A DNA stretch of 36,079 bases from a virus (Duplodnaviria; Heunggongvirae; Uroviricota; Caudoviricetes). Below the pieces are notes generated by a model. That model saw nothing but the letters and a program-made list of their open reading frames with translations, was not told the origin of the DNA and made no database searches. This document shows positions 2,369-30,354 of the stretch, one piece after another. The position numbers and the translations under genes are program-made. The stretch's first letter is position 1, and each line of letters opens with the position of its first letter. The stretch is from the IMG/VR virus record IMGVR_UViG_2690316109_000010; one strand, 5' to 3'.

Positions 2369-5300
2369 TCAGCTGATACTGATGCCTGCGGTGGCTTTCT
2401 TCATCACCACAACCAGCAAATCGCTGATACTTGCTGTGGGATACCAGTCATTTACCAGCCATGCTGACACCGAAAACTCCAGCGTCATGTGGCCGTGACC
2501 AGCAGGCATATCAATAACACCACTGTAAATCAGCGTATTATCCAGCGCGGTACGGTTATAAATTTCAGCACCATTTTTCTTCACTATCAGGCGGCATGAG
2601 GAGTAAATATCAGTATGCTCTCTCTCATGTTTAGCACCGCTGAATGCCACCGCCGGAATAACAATCTGCCGGTCAAACGGCTGATCGTCATAAATCCTGA
2701 CGGTAATGGTCCCTGATGGCCACCGCTCCGGTGCCCGGGAGTCCCGCGGGAAAGCCTTACCCACTGTTTTGACAATATCGCCTTCAATCTGGTTGGCTGA
2801 CAGTTTCCCTTTAATCTGACAGTTCTCATTTATCGTAACGTTGTTGAGCGTCCCGGAGTTCGCATTCACACTGCCACTGATATCTGCATTTTTAGCGGTC
2901 AGCTTTCCGTCCGGTGTCAGGGAAAATGCAGGAGGATTACCGCCGCTGGTAATGGTGGGAGCCGTCAGATATTTCAGGAACACTTCATTCATGAATATCT
3001 GATCACCCTGACCAACAAACATCGGTTTTGTGTTGCCATTTGCAGGATTAATCATCGCAATCCTGTCTGCCGCCAGCAGCACCTGACTCTGCATGCCGTC
3101 GGGGGTGTTCTCAATACCGGCACCGATACCCGCGATATAAAGGCGTCCGTCCTGCATCTGCTGCAGCTTCACAGCCCACATGCTGTTCAGATTATTATTT
3201 GTATCAACCTGAACCTTCTGTATCTGCTGGATCGCTGCACTCTGGTCTTCCAGTTTCTTATTGACGGTCTGTGTGATTTCATTGCTGACATCCGTAATGG
3301 ACGTCCTGATTTCAGCCAGGTCAGGCGCAAGCTGACCGTTATCAATCTGCGTCCACAGCTCCTGAGCCAGATGGGTTTTCCCTATCTCGCCTTTGAAAAA
3401 ATCCAGATAGCCGGATGCGTCATCACTCGGCTGACCAACAGCCTCCACGAATGCCGATTTGCCAACGGTGTTCACACTGCGAACGTAAAAATAATAATTA
3501 TGGCCCGGCCTGATATTGATACTGGCGGCTATCCAGTACAGCGCCGTGCCAAGATAGCGTGCTGTGGTTTCAACCTGCCTGATATCCGCAATCCGCTTTT
3601 CCGAGAACCAGAACTCAAACTGTACCGTCGGATCATAAACCGCAAGATGCGGCGTGGCGGTTATCTGAAAATAGCCCGGCGTCAGCTCAATCCGCGACGG
3701 CGCTGCCGGTGCGGCAATCCGGAACGATACCGACGCCGGATCGCCCTGCTGCCCCCACGCATTTACTGCCCGGACTGTCAGCCTGTAGTTCCCCAGAGCC
3801 AGTTGTGTGAAGCGGTAAGTGGTTTCCGTCGTCCGGGCCGTGCTGACCAGCCGCTCACTGCCGTCATCCGCTGCCACGGTCAGGCGAAGCATGAAACTCA
3901 CGCCCTTCACCACCTTCGGCGTGTCCCAGCGGGCCAGTACCTGATACTCCCCGCTGTCTGCGGTGACTTCGGCAGTCAGGTGCTGCACTGCTGGCGGCGT
4001 GACACCATTCACCGTGCCGCTCTGGTCGCCGTCAAAGTGCGCCCCGTTATCCACGATGGCTTCTTTTTCCGGTACATGCTGCACGGCGGTGATGGCATAC
4101 GTGCCGTCGTCGTTCTCACGGATACTCACGCAGCGGAACAGGCGCTGGCGCAGCGTCGGCAGCTTCAGCCCCCATACGCTGTATCCGGCAACGCCGTCAG
4201 GAACACGGCTCACTTTTACCTTCACGCCGTCGGTGACGGACTGGACCTCCACGCTGACCGGATTGCCACTTCCGTCAACCAGGCTTATCAGCGTGGTACC
4301 GGAGGATGGCAGCGTGATTTCACGGTCGAGCGTCAGCGTCCGGGTCTGGCTGTTCACCGCCAGCACGCGCCCGCCGGTGCTGATCCCCGCATAGTCATCA
4401 TCGCAGATTTCAATGACATCGCCCGGCACATGGCGAAGCCCTTCCGCACCCACGCTGAAGTCCACGGTCTGCGTTTCCAGTAGTTCCGTTTTAATCAGCC
4501 ACAGCCCGGCGCGGTGCGCCTGCCCCCGGCTGGTACAGCCAAAGGCATCCATCTTCGTGACGTTACGACCGTAACGGAGAATGGCCTGCGTATCTTCAAC
4601 AAGCTCTGTCGCCGTCTCCCAGCCGTTATCCGGGTCAATCCAGTTCACCTCAACGGCATTATGACGGTCCTTCAGGGCACTGAAGCTGTAGCGGAACGGC
4701 GCGCCATCATCCGGCATCACCACATTACTGCGGTTATAGGTCCACACCTTATCCGACGGTCGGTCCTGCACGAACGTCAGCGTCTGCCCGTTCCATACCG
4801 GCATACAGCGCATCGCCGAGCAGAAATCACTGAGAACATCCCACGCCTTGCGCTGTGTGGTCAGGTAGGCATTACAGGTGATGCGCGGCTCCGTGCCACC
4901 AAAGCCATCCGGCACCGACTGGTCGCAATTCTGGCCGATGACATACAGCGCCCATTTGTCCACATCCGCCGCACCGAGACGCTTCCCCATGCCGTAGCGC
5001 GGATGGGTCAGCATATCCCACAGACACCAGGCCATGTTGTTGCTGTATGCTGGCTTAAACGTTCCGTCCCAGATACCGCTGTATTGCCGCGTCTGCGGGT
5101 TATAGTTCGACGGCACCTGCAGAATGCGCCCGCGAAGATGATAATTACGGCTCACCTGCTGGCTGCCGAACTGTTCCGAGTCCACCTGCACGCCGACCAG
5201 TGCCGTGTTCGGGTAGCACTGTTTCACATCGATGATTTCGGTGTATGACGACCAGAGCGTTTTGTTCTGCAGCTGGTCTGTGGTGCTGTCCGGCGTCATT

Positions 5301-5848
5301 CTGCGCATCCGGATATTAAACGGGCGCGGCGGCAGGTTATCCACCACCACCGAGGCCAGATACTGCGAGGTGGTTTTGCCCTTAATGGTGATGTCTTTTT
5401 CCGTCACCCAGCCACCATTACGCTGTATCTGAACCAGCAGGCGAACTTCCGACGGATTCCGGTCCCCCTTTGAGGTGGTTTCCACCAGTGCCTGCACACC
5501 GAAGGTAAAGCGCAGTCGGTCGATGTTTGCCGACGTGATGGCGCGGGTGATCGGCGTGTCGTATTTCACTTCCGTACCCAACACCGTCTCGGAGCCGGAG
5601 GATTCAAATCCCTCCGGCGGAGTCTGCTCCTGCTCACCAGCCCGGAACACCACCGTGACACCGGCGATGTTGGTATTCCCATCACTGTCCAGCACCGGCG
5701 TACTGTTCAGCAGCACGCTTTTTAATCCATCCATCGGACCTTCAATCGGCCCTTCACTGATGGCATCAATCACACTCAGCAACTGCGTGGACTTCAGGTT
5801 GTCCTTCGCTTCGCGCGGGGTATGCCCCTTACTGCTTCCTTTACCCAT
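2369..5848 (-). CDS. J: Tail tip/host specificity protein J (central tail fiber)
   Basis: 1159 aa; N-terminus [38 protein letters not shown]... and most of the length match lambda J as I recall it; the last ~250 aa diverge. Confidence 0.95.
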
Positions 5849-5908
5849 TCCTCACGCTCCATAAACGACAAAACCGCCCGCAGGCGGTTTCACATAAAAC
5901 ATTTTGCA

Positions 5909-12046: not shown

Positions 12047-12790
12047 TTAACCTGCGGCGCTGACAGCCACCGCAGCCACTGCCACAAAATCGCCGTCAGA
12101 AGTCATGCCCACAATGCTGACACTGCCCTGCTTCACGCCTTTCACCGTGGCCACAAGCCCGTTCAGGGTCACCGTGGCAGTCTGTGGATCTGTCGAATGC
12201 ACACTGATCGCTTTGTCACTGGCTCCGTCAGGTTTTACTGTAAAGGTCAGCGTGGTGGTTGCTCCCACTTTTACACTGGCAGATGCCGGTGCCACCGTCA
12301 GCCCGGTAACGCTCACTGTTTCAGTGCCTTCCTCTGCCAGATACGGACGCCCCACACCGCTGATTTTCACTGTGCGGGTCATCACGTCTTTTGAGGCAAT
12401 GGTTTTACCCAGTGAGCTCAGCCAGCCACGGAAAACATCAACAGTGCCGTTGGGATATTTGATACGAAACGCGCAGACTTCACCGGAGTCGAACAACTGA
12501 ACCAGTTTTTTCTGCCCGCTGTCACCCGGACGCCAGGCCAGCGTCGCCGAAGTATCACCGACGGATTTCTGCCCCTGGGTTGTCGTTTTCCAGTCTGCAT
12601 CTTCATCATCGAGATAAGTGTCATCTTCTGCATCAGCGGTCATTTCGCCAGGTTGCAGATCCTTCACCATCGCAAGACGCAGCCAGTCAGTGTCCGATAA
12701 AGGGTTCGCAAACGCATCGCCCTTGCCGGTGTACATCCAGAACGTCGTTCCCGCACCTTTCGTTTTTGCCAGTGGATTTGGTGTGGTCAT
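12047..12790 (-). CDS. V: Major tail protein V with C-terminal Ig-like domain
   Basis: Lambda V-like (NPLAKTKGAGTTFWMY..., DADWKTTTQGQKSVGDTS...). ATG at 12790 sits 5 nt after GGAGG; the track start at 12796 is a GTG. Confidence 0.9.
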   Translation of the reverse strand: MTTPNPLAKTKGAGTTFWMYTGKGDAFANPLSDTDWLRLAMVKDLQPGEMTADAEDDTYLDDEDADWKTTTQGQKSVGDTSATLAWRPGDSGQKKLVQLFDSGEVCAFRIKYPNGTVDVFRGWLSSLGKTIASKDVMTRTVKISGVGRPYLAEEGTETVSVTGLTVAPASASVKVGATTTLTFTVKPDGASDKAISVHSTDPQTATVTLNGLVATVKGVKQGSVSIVGMTSDGDFVAVAAVAVSAAG

Positions 12791-12801
12791 TGCCACCTCC
12801 T

Positions 12802-13203
12802 TTAATTCGTGTACGTGATCTGGTACGTGATTTCCGCCATCGCCCAGGTGGCCATCTCATTATCACGTTGATAGTTAAAACCGAGAGGGATCAGGGTGTC
12901 GATGAGTCCGGAAAGTGCCGGTATATCATTCAGAGCCGGGAAAATGGTGCTCTCCATCCACATATCCAGCTCTGAATCCGGTGCCTGTGCCCGGATGAAG
13001 ACAGCAATATGCAGAACAGCCTGCCAGTCATCTTCATCCGTCATTTTTCCGGTGTACTGAGCATCACTCAGCCACACCGCCACGGCATGCAGTTCCTGCG
13101 CATCAATAAATGCCGGAAGCCCGTCAAAAAACGTGGCGCTGTCTCCACACTGTTCCCGAAGGCGTGCCAGTACGGCCTGGCGGATTTGTGTATGTCGGTT
13201 CAT
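12802..13203 (-). CDS. U: Tail terminator protein U
   Basis: Lambda U-like (HTQIRQAVLARL...SATFFDGLP...). Start at the ATG at 13203, which overlaps the Z stop as ATGA; an alternative ATG lies at 13215. Confidence 0.8.
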   Translation of the reverse strand: MNRHTQIRQAVLARLREQCGDSATFFDGLPAFIDAQELHAVAVWLSDAQYTGKMTDEDDWQAVLHIAVFIRAQAPDSELDMWMESTIFPALNDIPALSGLIDTLIPLGFNYQRDNEMATWAMAEITYQITYTN

Positions 13204-21568: not shown

Positions 21569-22036
21569 TCATCGAAGGCATTGCGTCCCGATGTATTCCT
21601 GAAGCGTTCTCAGTGCTGTTTGGTCGCGGATAATTCCGTCCCGGATACCGAGAACGTTTCGTCCAGCAACTGGAGAGAGTTCGACGGTGGCATCATTGCC
21701 CATGCCGGAGGCGCTGGAGGTTTCGGCTGAGGATGGCACAGGGCATTTTCCTTTGACGAGCACCCGACCACCATTATCAAGCTTGCGCCGAAGAGCATCA
21801 TTTTCAGCTTTCGCATCAGCTAACTCCTTCGTGTATTTAGCATCGAGTGCATCAGCAGAACGCTGGCGCTGCTGCATGTCAGTAATGGTGGCGGTCGCCT
21901 GCTTCAGCTCACTGACTTTTTTATCTCGCTGTTCTTTGTAGGCGATGGCGTTATCACGGTAATGATTGACCGCCCACGACAGGCAGACGATGATGCAGAT
22001 AACCAGAGCGGAGATAATCGCGGTTACTCTGCTCAT
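21569..22036 (-). CDS. Rz: Spanin inner-membrane subunit Rz
   Basis: [30 protein letters not shown]... matches lambda Rz; the ATG at 22036 overlaps the R stop as ATGA. Confidence 0.9.
21610..21816 (-). CDS. Rz1: Spanin outer-membrane lipoprotein Rz1, embedded in Rz in another frame
   Basis: 68 aa, [21 protein letters not shown]... with lipobox and a Pro-rich segment (PKPPAPPAW), fully inside Rz in the +1 frame. Confidence 0.8.
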
Positions 22037-22530
22037 TGTTGCCCCCACAAACAGACTTCACGCTCAATCTCACGACGAGTCATCAGGCCTTTCCATTGCT
22101 TACCGCCAGCGTATATCCAGCGACGTAGCTGGTCACATGCGCCTTTGATATCGCCCTGGTTTATTTTGCGAAGAAGCGTCGATGTTCTGAAATTGCCAGC
22201 ACCCACGTTGTAGACGAACGAGTAAAGAGCGCCGCGCGTTGTTTCCGGTATATCGACTTTGATGTACGGGTTAATTTGTCTGGCAACCGTGGCAAGGTCT
22301 TTATTCAGGAGGGCTTTGCATTCTGCTTTGGTATACGTTTTACCGAGCATGATGTCTTTTCCTGTATGCCCGTGACATACAGTCCATACACCAACAATAT
22401 CTTTGTATGGTATGTAGCTGACACCTTCCAGACCATCGTTACCACTTGGGCCAGTGATTAACACTGATGCTATAGCAATTGCTCCTCCACCAATAGCAGC
22501 AGCAACTGCTTTTCGTAATGATGGAGGCAT
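22033..22530 (-). CDS. R: SAR endolysin (phage 21 R-like lysozyme)
   Basis: 165 aa; N-terminal Gly/Ala-rich signal-arrest-release segment [30 protein letters not shown] followed by a lysozyme domain; matches the phage 21 endolysin as I recall it. Confidence 0.9.
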
Positions 22531-22745
22531 TATTCACCTCTCGCAGCCTTGCGCTTATCTTCTTTAATCTTGAAATAAAGGTTTGTCAGGTACGTCAGCA
22601 GGCCAAATACCAGACTACCCAGCACACCTATTGCCGCCCACTGTGAGGGCGTGACTTTATCGAGCAGCTGTAAAAACCAGTAGCCAGCACTGCCTGCGGA
22701 GGTGCCGTAGGCAATGCCTGTTGAAATTTTGTCCATGGATTTCAT
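22530..22745 (-). CDS. S: Pinholin (S21-like) with dual-start motif
   Basis: [31 protein letters not shown]...[14 protein letters not shown] from the ATG at 22745, with a second ATG at 22736 (Met1-Lys-Ser-Met4, the antiholin/holin pair). A further in-frame ATG at 22775 would give 81 aa. Confidence 0.85.
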
Positions 22746-22844
22746 AGCCTCACCTCCGCACGGAACGGATGGCATAGTTATTATGTGTAGGCTTCCAGAT
22801 ACATCAATCAGAGCCTTAATTGATATATATGCTGGAGACGATGC

Positions 22845-22871
22845 AATATAAAAAGCTCGCCGTAGCGAGCT
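22845..22871 (-). terminator. Rho-independent terminator between the lipoprotein cargo genes and S
   Basis: agctcgc-cgta-gcgagct hairpin followed by UUUUUAU on the minus strand. Confidence 0.55.
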
Positions 22872-22996: not shown

Positions 22997-23392
22997 CTAA
23001 CCTCGCATGTCAAAGCCAGATTTCTGAAAATCTCTGTAGACTTCCGGATTGTTGAAGGCCGGAAATTTGGCTTTATGAGCTGCGGACTTTATCGCTTCGC
23101 AATAGGCTTTATCACCGTTACTGGTAGATATTTTTAACGCCGTGCCATCCTGAGAGAATTCCATATGCAACCTGCATTTTTTCCCTTTCCAGTTATGCGG
23201 CTCATCAAGTTTGGCATTAATTGCAGCTCTGATTCCCCGCGCTTGCGCCCCCCATTCATCCTGATCATCCCAGCGTCCTGAACTGCAACTACCTGTAGCA
23301 GTAGTTTTGTGGCAATCTGAAGGGTGTAAAGGTGTGCATCCCGCAACAAAACCGACCCAAAAAGTCAACATAACGATTTTCTTTAATCCCAC
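22997..23392 (-). CDS. Lipoprotein with TolA domain III-like C-terminus (copy 1)
   Basis: 131 aa from the GTG at 23392 (GAGGAG 6 nt upstream); signal peptide MGLKKIVMLTFWVGFVAGC with lipobox; C-terminus KKCRLHMEFSQDGTALKIS...GDKAYCEAIKSAAHKAKFPAFNNPEVYRDFQKSGFDMRG. Confidence 0.7.
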   Translation of the reverse strand: MGLKKIVMLTFWVGFVAGCTPLHPSDCHKTTATGSCSSGRWDDQDEWGAQARGIRAAINAKLDEPHNWKGKKCRLHMEFSQDGTALKISTSNGDKAYCEAIKSAAHKAKFPAFNNPEVYRDFQKSGFDMRG

Positions 23393-23542
23393 TTCTTGCT
23401 CCTCAATCCATTAAAATCTCAGCAATAGTAGTTGTTACGTCCGCCACTGGCTCAGAGCTGACTATCCGCTAGATTTAGCTCAGTGCCGTAGTTGTGTCAG
23501 AACAAACCTAAGCCGAAACCGTTTATTACAAAACAATAAATA

Positions 23543-23971
23543 TCAGGGTTTAAAATCCAGCACCCCATTTTGAAATACTTTATATACTTCCGGCGAAGGG
23601 GGGGCAGGTATATCAGCATTCTTTATCGCATTCATCGCTTCACGACATAAATCGAGGTCTCCACTTTCTCTTTTAACCTCCAGTAGAAGGCCATTCGGGG
23701 CCATATGCATTCTCAGTGTACACTCTTTTCCTGAATACTTACTCGCATCCCCGAACTGTTTTTCGATGGCGCTCTTGATTTGATGGGCATACAGACGGAT
23801 ATCCTCACTAACATCAGAAGTACGTTCAGATGAACTCACATACTGTGTCTCTATTGCTTTATCGGAGTAATATGATGTACGGTCATGATAATTTGTCGAT
23901 ACAGCATCAGTGCACCCGATAATAATCCCACTAATAATCAACGTAAGAATTGATGCGCTACGAAAACCCAT
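23543..23971 (-). CDS. Lipoprotein with TolA domain III-like C-terminus (copy 2)
   Basis: 142 aa from the ATG at 23971 after GAGGA; signal peptide with lipobox IIGC; C-terminus YAHQIKSAIEKQFGDASKYSGKECTLRMHMAPNGLLLEVKRESGDLDLCREAMNAIKNADIPAPPSPEVYKVFQNGVLDFKP resembles the TolA C-terminal domain as I recall it. Confidence 0.75.
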   Translation of the reverse strand: MGFRSASILTLIISGIIIGCTDAVSTNYHDRTSYYSDKAIETQYVSSSERTSDVSEDIRLYAHQIKSAIEKQFGDASKYSGKECTLRMHMAPNGLLLEVKRESGDLDLCREAMNAIKNADIPAPPSPEVYKVFQNGVLDFKP

Positions 23972-24337
23972 TTTTCCTCACATATGTCATATAGTAAAGG
24001 ATTATATATACCGTTGTTTTGGACGCTCAAACAGCGAATCAGATCAAATAAAACGCACATTTGTTAACATTTACACAAAGTCTGCGTGGGATATTCTGAA
24101 AGAATATCCATAATGTGGAGAGAATCTATTGAAGTGCATGGTGCCGGGGGCCTCCCGGTGAATTCAGTACCAGCACCTGAATCCACGATTATCCCATATA
24201 CCTACTCGCTGATTGCCCCTCCGCACAGGGGGATTCACCATGCCAGTTTCTTTTAACAAACTCCCCGCAAACCAGAGAACAGTCAACCGCCTGAATTGTG
24301 AAGTATTTAAAAATTTCTCCCGCTAACTGATACCCGG

Positions 24338-24341: not shown

Positions 24342-25537
<1,196 letters not shown>

Positions 25538-25541
25538 CTAA
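25538..25541. repeat. IS5 target site duplication CTAA (right)
   Basis: CTAA immediately follows the right inverted repeat. Confidence 0.85.
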
Positions 25542-25704
25542 CAGTCTGGCGTTTTCTTTTTCAGCAACGGGAAAGCAACAACTACCACACCCGCCACCAG
25601 CACACCGTCAGCCAGCACTGACATTATCCGGCTGCTGCAATGCCATTCACAAAAACAGTAAGCAATCACTTTTTACCGTAACAGGTGATAATCCAGATAT
25701 GTAT

Positions 25705-26168: not shown

Positions 26169-26245
26169 TGGCGCGCTGTACTGGATTCGAACCAGTGACC
26201 GATTGCTTAGAAGGCAATTGCTCTGTCCGGCTGAGCTAACAACGC
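26169..26245 (-). tRNA. tRNA-Arg (anticodon UCU)
   Basis: The reverse complement folds as a cloverleaf: acceptor GCGTTGT/ACAGCGC, D arm GCTC...GAGC, anticodon stem ATTGC/GCAAT with loop CTTCTAA, T arm ACTGG-TTCGAAT-CCAGT, 3' CCA. Confidence 0.85.
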
Positions 26246-26461: not shown

Positions 26462-26488
26462 AATAAAAAACCCGCTCGGTGGCGGGTT
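26462..26488 (-). terminator. Candidate late terminator tR' downstream of Q
   Basis: aacccgc-caccga-gcgggtt hairpin on the minus strand followed by UUUUUUAUU. Confidence 0.6.
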
Positions 26489-26568: not shown

Positions 26569-27390
26569 TTACCTAGTTACCTTTTTTAACTGCCGCTCAG
26601 CCCATGCTTCTTCAATATCAAACCGGGTCACCAGCGCATCATAGAATTTCTTAACTGTTTTTTCCCATGACGCGCGTGTTATCTGGTTTGTCACCTCGCA
26701 TATAGCATTAAATGCCTCCGTTGATGGTAGTCTTTCATAGCCACGACCACCACAACGCTGGCAGTCTCTGATAACAGGCATACCACGTTTTACCGACTCT
26801 TCACGGTGAATGGCGACACCACGCCCACGGCAATCCTTACAGACGGTGGAAACCTCACCCTTTCCGCCACACTCCGGACAGGCAACTTTTACCACCTCCC
26901 TGACTTTTTTCCATTCTTCCCAGTAAGACGGATACACACCTTTCGTACACTTTGCCCATACCGGCGGCTTACCATCCGGATACTGGACCTTGTTTGTAAA
27001 AACTACGCTTTCAATAAATTTTTCCCCATAGCAACAAGGGCACTGCTTTTTACTCGCTGCGCTGCGGGCATAATCCTCAAAAGCGTACGAAGCCATAATG
27101 CGCATCACTAACGGTTTTATTTCTGCCGGAAGTTTTCTCAACGCCGCCACACGATCGCACCGACTGAGTGCATAATCTGCCAGTAATTCTGTTGCCCGCG
27201 CCCTGTCATTCATACTGATGCCCATTTTCCCCAGGAACGCAGAAAACCCCATCTCAGCCCGATTCTGTGTCATGCCCTGCGCGGCCATCACATCAGTGAT
27301 ACTCAGCGCATCTTTTGACGTTGAGGCCGATGCATCGGTCAGGCAAGGGGATTTTGGGGAGTAGTATTTCGGTAAATCTTCCAGTTTCAT
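26569..27390 (-). CDS. Putative late antiterminator Q (QuuQ-like) with DnaJ-type zinc-finger repeats
   Basis: 273 aa with CPCCYGEK, CPECGGKG, CKDCRGRG and CQRCGGRG (CxxCxGxG) repeats; assigned as Q by position between rusA and pR'/tRNAs/lysis genes. Confidence 0.5.
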   Translation of the reverse strand: MKLEDLPKYYSPKSPCLTDASASTSKDALSITDVMAAQGMTQNRAEMGFSAFLGKMGISMNDRARATELLADYALSRCDRVAALRKLPAEIKPLVMRIMASYAFEDYARSAASKKQCPCCYGEKFIESVVFTNKVQYPDGKPPVWAKCTKGVYPSYWEEWKKVREVVKVACPECGGKGEVSTVCKDCRGRGVAIHREESVKRGMPVIRDCQRCGGRGYERLPSTEAFNAICEVTNQITRASWEKTVKKFYDALVTRFDIEEAWAERQLKKVTR

Positions 27391-27761
27391 TTTTTGACCT
27401 GCTCTTCATGCATTATGGGGTAAATCTTCACCCCCAGACGTCCACCAGATACTGGCTGACCACGAACGATATTGATTTCATCAAACTGCTCATCGTCCAT
27501 TAACACTCCCGCATGCGTCAGCGCATCCAGCGGTGCTTTCAGGATATTGTCCAGGTCGCGACGACGCTTATCCGGTGGCTCTGCAATCACCTTTATCGCC
27601 AGCCTTCCGGACAGGCTTAATTTCAGCCGCTGCTGGCGAACAATAAGCGCCACAGCCCGGCGATAACGCTTTCCCTCCTCCGAGATAAAATATGTGCTGC
27701 CACGGCGTCGCCAGTAAGTGTTCACCGTCGGCGGGTAAGGTAAAACCAAATCTATGAGCAT
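27387..27761 (-). CDS. rusA: Holliday junction resolvase RusA
   Basis: About 124 aa from the ATG at 27761 (MLIDLVLPYPPTVNTYWRRRG...) with a ...RRRDLDN... motif, RusA-like; GAGGTGA Shine-Dalgarno. Confidence 0.8.
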   Translation of the reverse strand: MLIDLVLPYPPTVNTYWRRRGSTYFISEEGKRYRRAVALIVRQQRLKLSLSGRLAIKVIAEPPDKRRRDLDNILKAPLDALTHAGVLMDDEQFDEINIVRGQPVSGGRLGVKIYPIMHEEQVKK

Positions 27762-27773
27762 CACTCACCTCTT

Positions 27774-29636: not shown

Positions 29637-29792
29637 TTACTCCTCAGGTTCGTAAGCTGTGAAGACAGCGACCTCCGTCTGGCCGGTTCGGATTCGTACC
29701 TCGCAGAGGTCTTTCCTCGTTACCAGTGCCGTCACTATGACGGTTAAACAGATGACGATCAGGGCGATTAACATCGCCTTTTGCTGCTTCAT
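29637..29792 (-). CDS. hok: Hok-family type I toxin (HokD/RelF-like)
   Basis: 51 aa, MKQQKAMLIALIVICLTVIVTALVTRKDLCEVRIRTGQTEVAVFTAYEPEE, a Hok-family membrane toxin; ATG at 29792 after AGGAG; the frame is open upstream to 29849 (mok-like leader). Confidence 0.85.
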   Translation of the reverse strand: MKQQKAMLIALIVICLTVIVTALVTRKDLCEVRIRTGQTEVAVFTAYEPEE

Positions 29793-30354
29793 AGCCTGCT
29801 TCTCCTTGCCTTTCGGCACGTAAGAGGCTAACCTACATGTGTCTAGCATGAAATTGGCCTCAGGTTAATGTTAAGCGTCTTGCCGGACGCGTAATGTTAA
29901 CTGGGGCTTTTCTCTATCTGCCTTTGGTGTTCATGCCTGAGGCAGATAGCCTCAAGCACCCGCAGCAATTCTACTTAACTCACGTCACCTCGCCAATATA
30001 AAATCAATCAGAAAGGCGATCCGTAAGAACAACAGCAAGGCAATAAATTGCCATTACAGCCGCAATAGCTAGCGCACATTTGAGAACCAGCACGACAACC
30101 TCCTGTATTGGACGTACACCAGTCCTGATGAATATGAGGCTGTCTCGTCAGTGATTCAATACAACTATTGGGTATAGTTTCTCTGATTTTTTCTGTGGAA
30201 ATGGGGCTCAACCACTAGTCACCACCAGCACTTCTTTTAATACGCAAAGTCCGACACAAGCTAACCTTCTAGTCCGCTTTGAGCGAGGAGCGGAAGTTTA
30301 TAGACATTTCTTGCACTGCATTGTCTAATCAATTAGGAGCTGGTAACGTGCCCT

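Follow-up and report, generated by a model that had tools for sequence, protein, structure and literature searches.

A 36,079-nucleotide stretch of viral DNA (IMG/VR record IMGVR_UViG_2690316109_000010; "the window" below is this whole stretch) is a lambdoid Escherichia coli prophage with its genes on the minus strand, and between its antiterminator gene Q and its holin gene lie two intact genes, here called P1 and P2, that each encode a lipoprotein signal, a flexible tether and a copy of domain III of TolA (TolAIII). This architecture and the homology to TolA are proven by profile, sequence and fold comparisons that agree with one another. The reading developed here, held tentatively but quite possibly correct, is that P1 and P2 are un-energised decoys that would trap TolA-dependent colicins and filamentous phages on their way through the periplasm.

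The relationship to TolA is evident by several routes. Against the Pfam family TolA_C (PF06519, cutoff 25 bits) P1 scored 82.6 bits (E = 2.4e-23) and P2 54.6 bits (E = 1.3e-14). P1 also matched the solved E. coli TolAIII chains in the Protein Data Bank (PDB) with E = 5e-28 and is 59% identical to E. coli TolA 334-421 over 88 residues, while P2 is 31% identical to TolAIII. The NCBIfam models of TolA aligned with both proteins over their final 80-100 positions only (293-386 of 387 in NF007065, 265-362 of 362 in TIGR02794). With NF007065 both fell under the cutoff of 213 (P1 107.8 bits, P2 53.7), and P1 passed TIGR02794 by its C-terminal domain alone (75.6 against a cutoff of 59.45), a looser cutoff that may be the reason why annotation pipelines name it tolA. 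AlphaFold2 models gave a predicted local distance difference test score of about 90 over the domain and under 50 over residues 1-50 of P1 and 1-41 of P2. The P1 model superposed on the TolAIII chain 2x9a_B with a root-mean-square deviation of 0.7 Å (template modelling score 0.96) and the P2 model on TolAIII in 3qdp at 1.1 Å (0.92), with TonB C-terminal domains appearing only as distant matches. Both proteins have the TolAIII fold of a helix, a three-stranded sheet and further helices, with equivalents of the Cys363/Cys388 disulfide, and none of the relatives examined lacks either of these two cysteines. The only significant family matches were TolA_C and, for P2, PHROG 5772, an unannotated group of unknown function. 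A preliminary reading made from the sequence alone had seen the resemblance to TolA domain III by comparison with a quoted TolA sequence, which matches that of the PDB; it had proposed a profile search and structure prediction against TolA C-terminal structures as a check, and the PF06519 scores and the two superpositions bear it out.

The sequence-only reading had also called two genes at 22997-23971 with the lipoboxes VAGC and IIGC, and both open reading frames are found there on the minus strand, with VAGC in P2 (Cys19) and IIGC in P1 (Cys20). Strong Shine-Dalgarno sequences can be read before each, GAGGA 5' of P1 and GAGGAG six bases 5' of the P2 GTG. The signal sequences, MGFRSASILTLIISGIIIGC for P1 and MGLKKIVMLTFWVGFVAGC for P2, both have a basic n-region, a hydrophobic h-region and threonine at +2. 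They fit the rule applied here to lipoprotein signals, a rule-based reading that looks for [LVI][ASTVI][GAS]C some 15-35 residues from the start behind a basic n-region and a hydrophobic h-region, and the lipobox is kept throughout both families. By the E. coli +2 rule (threonine, with no aspartate at +2) the lipidated proteins would be sorted to the outer membrane. In P1 the signal peptide is followed by a disordered linker of about 30 residues and by TolA domain III from about residue 51 to 142, ending in LDFKP; in P2 the linker holds a second cysteine pair (C27 and C36) that is conserved in the P2 family, and a diverged TolA domain III extends from about residue 45 to 131 and ends in FDMRG. 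RefSeq record NZ_CP016546.1 places the P2 start seven codons downstream, with loss of the basic n-region; the GTG start fits the ribosome-binding site and the homologues that start MGVKK from ATG. The two genes were said to be AT-rich, and a bias exists, but a modest one, with a G+C content (GC) of 0.39-0.47 in the P1/P2 region against about 0.50-0.55 in most flanking windows.

P1 and P2 are nonetheless not TolA proper. Their N-terminus is a lipoprotein signal and not the transmembrane anchor (domain I) that couples TolA to TolQ-TolR, and at 142 and 131 residues, with a disordered linker of about 25-30 residues, they lack the helical domain II and the full length of about 420 residues. Nor do they stand in a tolQRA-tolB-pal operon, of which a true example was seen in locus L024 (a chromosome mislabelled as a plasmid, see below), but between the prophage Q and holin genes. 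For the decoy reading it matters that residues 1-50 consist of signal peptide and disordered linker, with transmembrane anchor and domain II both absent: having no coupling to TolQR, either protein would be a dead end for whatever docks on it.

RefSeq takes a different view of P1. In NZ_CP016546.1 (locus L001, with the pair at 12743-13003 and 12197-12571) P1 is flagged as "tolA, incomplete, missing N-terminus, pseudogene", and this annotation by PGAP, together with frameshifted P1 variants in the databases, could be taken to mean that both genes are decayed and non-functional tolA fragments. We find that hardly credible. The reading frames are intact and preceded by strong ribosome-binding sites, and they encode a signal peptide and lipobox that TolA lacks. 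Ratios of nonsynonymous to synonymous substitution (dN/dS) are far under 1, namely 0.08-0.17 for P2 against homologues from plasmid pO157, Citrobacter and Serratia (synonymous divergence dS 0.5-0.8) and 0.36 for P1 against a 66%-identical variant, so that both genes are under purifying selection. E. coli and Klebsiella TolAIII are 92% identical to each other, whereas P1 is 59% and P2 31% identical to either, which argues against a recent fragment; and the same lipoprotein-TolAIII architecture is repeated in at least 60 distinct clusters. By these distances P1 and P2 are old lineages that evolve separately. With its own lipobox, purifying selection and divergence from TolAIII set against it, the fragment reading is effectively refuted and was rejected; the same evidence argues against the pseudogene label of the record examined, which hides an intact and conserved gene with lipoprotein architecture.

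As a separate observation, P1 variants of 157-163 residues in the databases change frame exactly at a run of seven G within the gene, losing the last helix and the β3 strand. Raw-read (Logan) assemblies account for most of them, with at least one in NCBI, and they could be products of slipped-strand phase variation or sequencing errors.

The pair had further been described as paralogous genes in tandem, which overstates their kinship. P1 and P2 are only 27% identical and their relatives are found apart elsewhere, and for these reasons they are not recent duplicates; an origin by tandem duplication was rejected on the same two grounds.

Partner binding by TolAIII has been mapped in detail. The N-terminus of TolB, the N1 domain of the filamentous-phage protein g3p (g3p-N1) and colicin N (ColN) all bind its β3 strand (A415-K420) by β-strand addition (PMC4339652); the backbone hydrogen bonds of D418 and K420 are required for all three interactions, and D418P or K420P abolishes them and gives a tol phenotype (PMC4339652). 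Two further sites are known, the 375-LLDIKP-380 box used by colicin A and the first helix, which adds to specificity for g3p and ColN (PMC4339652; PMC3365938). Where E. coli TolA has APLDFKP at the β3 strand and C-terminus, P1 has GVLDFKP, with LDFKP identical, and P2 has SGFDMRG; the colicin A box LLDIKP is LLEVKR in P1 and ALKIST in P2; K368 is replaced by H in P1 and E in P2, and K396 is kept in P1 and is H in P2. The disulfide cysteines are present in all three. When 60 lipobox-bearing short representatives (clusters separate at 50% identity) were compared with 48 full-length TolAs, L417 was conserved in 67% against 62%, D418 in 70% against 31% and F419 in 83% against 100%, from which the β3 motif appears to be kept in the lipoprotein-TolAIII family at least as well as in TolAs themselves.

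From these features the following mechanism is proposed, for a decoy such as the sequence-only reading had suggested; the decoy function is plausible and gains strength from the plasmid relatives described below. Cleavage by signal peptidase II and Lol sorting would bring the domain to the periplasm-facing side of the outer membrane. There a flexible tether of about 25-30 residues would hold a disulfide-bonded TolAIII copy right beneath the membrane, the tether being short enough that the domain should stay outside the peptidoglycan layer. With no transmembrane anchor and no helical domain II, it would have no coupling to the TolQR proton motor. In a lysogen expressing the genes, colicin translocation domains and g3p-N1 would meet the decoy first on entering the periplasm and dock by β-strand addition; invaders so docked would never be pulled inward, and the lysogen would be tolerant. 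P1 keeps the strand used by TolB, g3p and ColN exactly, and P2, with its changed strand, probably has another ligand range. The affinity of ColN for TolA is about 1 µM and that of TolA for TolB about 40 µM (PMC4339652), a gap that could let a decoy favour invaders over TolB, and a modest amount of decoy could then trap invaders without disabling Tol-Pal. The converse has been done in the laboratory: periplasmic g3p-N1 sequesters TolA and blocks uptake of colicin A and phage (PMC10424213).

The tactic makes ecological sense for those that would carry it. Bacteriocin plasmids face rival bacteriocins, prophages protect their lysogen, and F-type or IncF plasmids make pili that draw TolA-dependent filamentous phages to the host, so that each kind of carrier would profit from immunity at the stage of entry. 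The dominant-negative action of free TolAIII is old laboratory knowledge, and periplasmic constructs of TonB fragments are likewise familiar. In work from 1993 attributed to Levengood-Freyermuth, Click and Webster in J Bacteriol, overproduction of periplasmic TolAIII reportedly left E. coli leaky and conferred tolerance of group A colicins.

Relatives on plasmids extend the picture. In a protein search, TolAIII-like sequence was found in 1,307 of 72,556 plasmid records, a few of which are mislabelled chromosomes with the real tolA (one confirmed, L024). The matches are mostly short stand-alone genes and form three groups, on Klebsiella ColRNAI plasmids, on IncF plasmids and on pO157. The Klebsiella 10-kb ColRNAI plasmids encode a 123-residue lipoprotein-TolAIII whose signal ends ...LLLTAC and whose C-terminus is FKNAPLDFRP; a partner gene overlapping it by 4 bp encodes 121 residues, in which an ordinary signal peptide precedes a TonB C-terminal domain (Pfam TonB_C, E = 9e-11), and the pair lies near colicin-like toxin, immunity and lysis genes. 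This pairing with a secreted TonB head suggests that the tactic extends to Ton-dependent agents. On the IncFII plasmid pEC11-2 (5229-6258, plus strand) a TolAIII lipoprotein gene lies directly downstream of a gene for a thioredoxin-fold (DsbA-/TraF-like) protein, a neighbour that would suit a disulfide-bonded periplasmic domain. On pO157 of strain Sakai (NC_002128.1, 5815-6246, plus strand) the open reading frame p55, annotated "hypothetical protein" and located near psiB, psiA and nikB, belongs to the P2 family and is 88% identical. Compared with E. coli TolAIII, the Klebsiella and IncF proteins show about 43-48% identity, and their last residues are LDFRP or LDFRL. A comparison aimed at host-specific mimicry, which asked whether each protein most resembles the TolA of its own host, was uninformative at the 92% identity of the E. 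coli and Klebsiella domains.

Two observations on the Klebsiella plasmids stand apart from this. The TolAIII/TonB pair recurs in many near-identical plasmids of 10-12 kb and appears to be uncharacterised. The CloDF13 proteins K and L, which occupy the slot of this pair, were considered as mis-sequenced TolA- and TonB-like genes; they are unrelated, and the idea was rejected.

In E. coli itself the genes are common. Of 5,426 complete genomes, 775 (about 14%) carry the 1.4-kb P1-P2 module at a coverage of at least 80%, one annotated example being the prophage adjoining ydfJ in L001. P1 alone matched in 888 E. coli genomes, nearly always in the chromosome, and P2 in 1,269, with a prophage form of at least 99% identity in about 784 genomes and a form 80-90% identical in about 515 records; 525 of 1,350 P2 matching places are on plasmids. 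In other lambdoid prophages, P1 variants of 66% identity occupy the Q-to-S region with no P2 partner and have an AraC-type regulator, TfpB or the nanS-p esterase as neighbour. P2-family genes stand alone in a Citrobacter chromosome (near an ars operon and phage remnants) and in a Serratia chromosome (flanked by nrdDG on one side and by GmrSD-like and HEPN genes on the other). When 1.84 billion representative proteins were searched exhaustively with a profile, 603 matched; among the best 150 of these, 96 are of 170 residues or less, and a recognisable lipobox is found in 62 of the 96. From this sample, with slightly different filters, came the 60 short representatives compared above, and lipoprotein-TolAIII proteins thus form at least 60 distinct clusters. 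The contexts of the short lipobox representatives are mixed, with one in a phage-like contig and one among ordinary chromosomal genes. A word-indexed homologue search with alignment returned the same close relatives and did not reach true TolAs.

Several points weigh against a decoy function. A TolAIII domain that binds TolB could harm its host through a tol phenotype, which would be ill-suited to carriage in 14-23% of E. coli. P2, the commoner family, has a diverged β3 strand (FDMRG) and colicin A box, and as β-strand addition is driven mostly by the backbone, conservation of the strand may reflect fold stability alone. The promoter-like site before P1 (described below) is not conserved 5' of P1 variants in other prophages, whose sequences at that place are unrelated. 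For some relatives the surroundings are ordinary chromosome, with no mobile-element context. Searched by DNA and protein, only one of 50,697 phage records carries the module, namely Escherichia phage mEp460_ev081 (LR597641.1, 4359-5333, 99.8% identical to the window), which may have acquired it from a host prophage; as it is the sole carrier, isolated phages give almost no context for P1 and P2. Finally, neither P1 nor P2 nor the Klebsiella pair is represented by a model in the PADLOC defence library, and a full-text literature search found no study of the P1/P2 genes.

The divergence of P2 gives some room to another explanation, applicable above all to that family, in which the TolAIII scaffold is reused in a surface or envelope factor of lysogenic conversion (serum resistance, adhesion or host interaction, as with lambda Bor and Lom) or in exclusion of tailed phages by some other route. 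The slot is of a type shared with the virulence morons stx and nanS-p, a P2-family gene is on the enterohaemorrhagic E. coli virulence plasmid pO157, the Serratia homologue lies beside GmrSD-like and HEPN defence genes, and P2 combines its diverged partner strand with a linker carrying an extra conserved disulfide loop. Nothing positive speaks for another ligand, however, and the import machinery is favoured over host interaction by the family-wide conservation of β3 and by the TonB C-terminal domain that accompanies TolAIII on bacteriocin plasmids; reuse of the scaffold is judged rather improbable.

The setting of P1 and P2 within the prophage is summarized in Table 1.

Table 1. Features of the Q-to-holin region of the window and its surroundings, with the related gene pair of a Klebsiella plasmid in the last line
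Feature	Position	Strand	Details
RusA	27764..27387	-	
Antiterminator Q	27390..26569	-	Pfam Antiterm, E = 8e-55; upstream boundary of the Q-to-S region
tR'-like terminator	26488..26469	-	terminator scan
tRNA, CAT anticodon	26425..26350	-	typed Met
tRNA-Arg	26245..26169	-	
Small DUF3927 gene	25669..25538 (inferred)	-	
IS5-type insertion	~24342..25537	+	4-bp target duplication; transposase with DDE_Tnp_1 and DUF772
STnc100-type RNA element	24272..24082	-	Rfam RF02076, 110 bits against a gathering score of 47; full length
Sigma-70 promoter-like site	24030..24001	-	TTGAGC, 18-nt spacer, TATAAT; 10 of 12 matches
P1	23971..23543	-	142 residues, ATG start; intact open reading frame
G7 run (C7 on coding strand)	23598..23604		inside P1, codons for PAPPSP; read from the sequence
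P2	23392..22997	-	131 residues, GTG start; intact open reading frame
Terminator-like hairpin	22871..22854	-	AGCTCGC-TACG-GCGAGCT, then a T run; between P2 stop and holin; terminator scan
P21-type holin	22775..22530	-	Pfam Phage_holin_2_1
Lysozyme	22530..22033	-	Pfam Phage_lysozyme
Rz	22048..21569	-	Pfam Phage_lysis
Rz1	21816..21610	-	Pfam Rz1; embedded in Rz
TolAIII/TonB_C pair, K. pneumoniae 10-kb ColRNAI plasmid	5165..5898 of NZ_CP023944.1 (L012)	-	

The genes had been placed between the tRNAs and the holin, in the position where Stx phages carry stx. The Q-to-holin region is right, with the qualification that an IS5 copy also lies between the tRNAs and the genes; the equation with the stx position is approximate, as the region between Q and S is the same but P1 and P2 lie downstream of the stx site, as judged by a 66-bp piece of the STnc100 element. 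This core (24135-24200) is the sole part of the locus common to Stx phages and is found directly downstream of stx1B in Shigella phage 75/02. The STnc100 element, at the upstream edge of the P1-P2 module, may mark a conserved border of the Q-to-S cargo slot or a site of recombination there, or may be a functional RNA of the late region. The promoter-like site, a match to consensus only and the top scorer on that strand, ends about 30 nt 5' of the P1 start codon. P1 and P2 are best explained as accessory ("moron") genes of a lambdoid prophage; this site before them, the terminator-like hairpin after them (likewise a consensus match only) and a GC lower than that of most flanking windows may mark a transcription unit of their own, the promoter-like site not being kept in variant loci.

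The IS5 copy, whose boundaries come from comparison with the uninterrupted locus L001, is specific to this window and is missing from the otherwise 99.6%-identical L001. It is inserted right after the DUF3927 stop and separates the pR'/tRNA region from the cargo and lysis genes, with its transposase on the strand opposite to late transcription; it may uncouple the late genes here from Q-dependent transcription. The lysis cassette, which is P21-like in type, has a class II holin and a lysozyme whose N-terminus resembles a signal-anchor-release (SAR) segment, and the two may be a pinholin/SAR-endolysin pair. In the early region are found a 604-residue GmrSD_N (DUF262) protein, likely an anti-phage nuclease (30421-32235, minus strand), and a sok/hok-type toxin-antitoxin RNA (29787-29961, minus strand; Rfam sok, 118.7 bits).

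The location of P1 and P2 immediately upstream of holin, endolysin and spanin, on the late transcript from Q and pR', bears on the possibility that they modulate Tol-Pal. A tethered TolAIII could bind the N-terminus of host TolB (or Pal or CpoB) and damp Tol-Pal, with a looser outer membrane, more vesicles or easier lysis and release upon Q-driven read-through. P1 has the exact TolB-binding strand, and TolA β3 mutants that do not bind TolB show the full tol phenotype (PMC4339652). On the other hand, relatives occur on plasmids and at chromosomal sites with no lysis genes, the phage has its own Rz/Rz1 spanin for the outer membrane, the promoter-like site and terminator-like hairpin suggest a unit apart from the lysis genes, the TolA-TolB affinity is weak at about 40 µM, and a tol phenotype expressed constitutively would burden the host. 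We regard this role as unlikely; perturbation of Tol-Pal during lysis, which the sequence-only reading had put forward, gained no specific support, in view of the relatives on plasmids and chromosomes with no lysis genes nearby. Were it true, phages would naturally carry inhibitors of an envelope system that serves as a target for antibiotic sensitisation.

Should P1 and P2 be decoys, several consequences would follow. Roughly 1 in 6 to 1 in 4 sequenced E. coli strains would have a built-in tolerance to TolA-dependent colicins and filamentous phages, with relevance to colicins and other bacteriocins as narrow-spectrum antimicrobials, to phage display, to the biology of Ff phages in wild strains and to competition in the gut. 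A new principle of defence would be at hand, in which the import hub of the cell is mimicked by mobile elements and the tether catches invaders at the point of entry, and the pairing with a secreted TonB C-terminal domain suggests one trick for both energy-transduction systems. A wider proposal is that mobile elements of Enterobacterales commonly carry un-energised TolAIII lipoproteins and secreted TonB C-terminal domains as an unrecognised, broad class of entry immunity against Tol- and Ton-dependent bacteriocins and phages, acting by mimicry of the import hub and not by receptor masking or toxin neutralisation. This generalisation is conceivable though on balance doubtful; if true, it could explain part of the unexplained colicin insensitivity of natural isolates.

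As to novelty, the domain homology is already known, being present in TolA-related RefSeq names and in PHROG 5772. What appears to be undescribed is a natural, predicted lipid-anchored family of proposed TolAIII decoys on mobile elements, together with its prevalence and, on bacteriocin plasmids, its pairing with a TonB head: the full-text literature search returned nothing on any of the three. The remark made at the outset that no characterised prophage system of this kind was known thus stands for the literature searched, with the reservation that the homology itself was already in RefSeq names.

Among known systems the nearest is TolA domain III itself (E. coli TolA ~325-421; structures 1TOL, 3QDP/3QDR, 2X9A and 1S62), which has the same fold and disulfide pair and, as in P1, the sequence LDFKP. 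TolA differs in having domains I and II, a link to TolQR and the proton motive force, and a place in the tol-pal operon, whereas P1 and P2 have a lipoprotein signal, a short tether and a prophage location. The Klebsiella ColRNAI, IncF and pO157 p55 proteins share the lipobox-linker-TolAIII architecture on other replicons and among other neighbours; they too are uncharacterised, and they widen the phenomenon without explaining it. Llp of phage T5 and Cor of phi80, N15 and the mEp phages are, like P1 and P2, small phage lipoproteins; they are thought to lie in the inner leaflet of the outer membrane and to block competitors (bioRxiv 10.64898/2026.03.26.714494). Llp and Cor plug the receptor FhuA, whereas P1 and P2 would mimic a periplasmic import hub, and no homology between them is indicated, the significant family matches of P1 and P2 being TolA_C and PHROG 5772 alone. 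The closest parallel in logic is offered by the periplasmic TolAIII, g3p-N1 and TonB C-terminal fragments of the laboratory, in each of which an uncoupled copy of a partner titrates an import pathway. Those constructs are artificial, soluble and overproduced, whereas P1 and P2 are natural genes that prophages and plasmids spread, that evolve under purifying selection and whose products are predicted to carry a lipid anchor.

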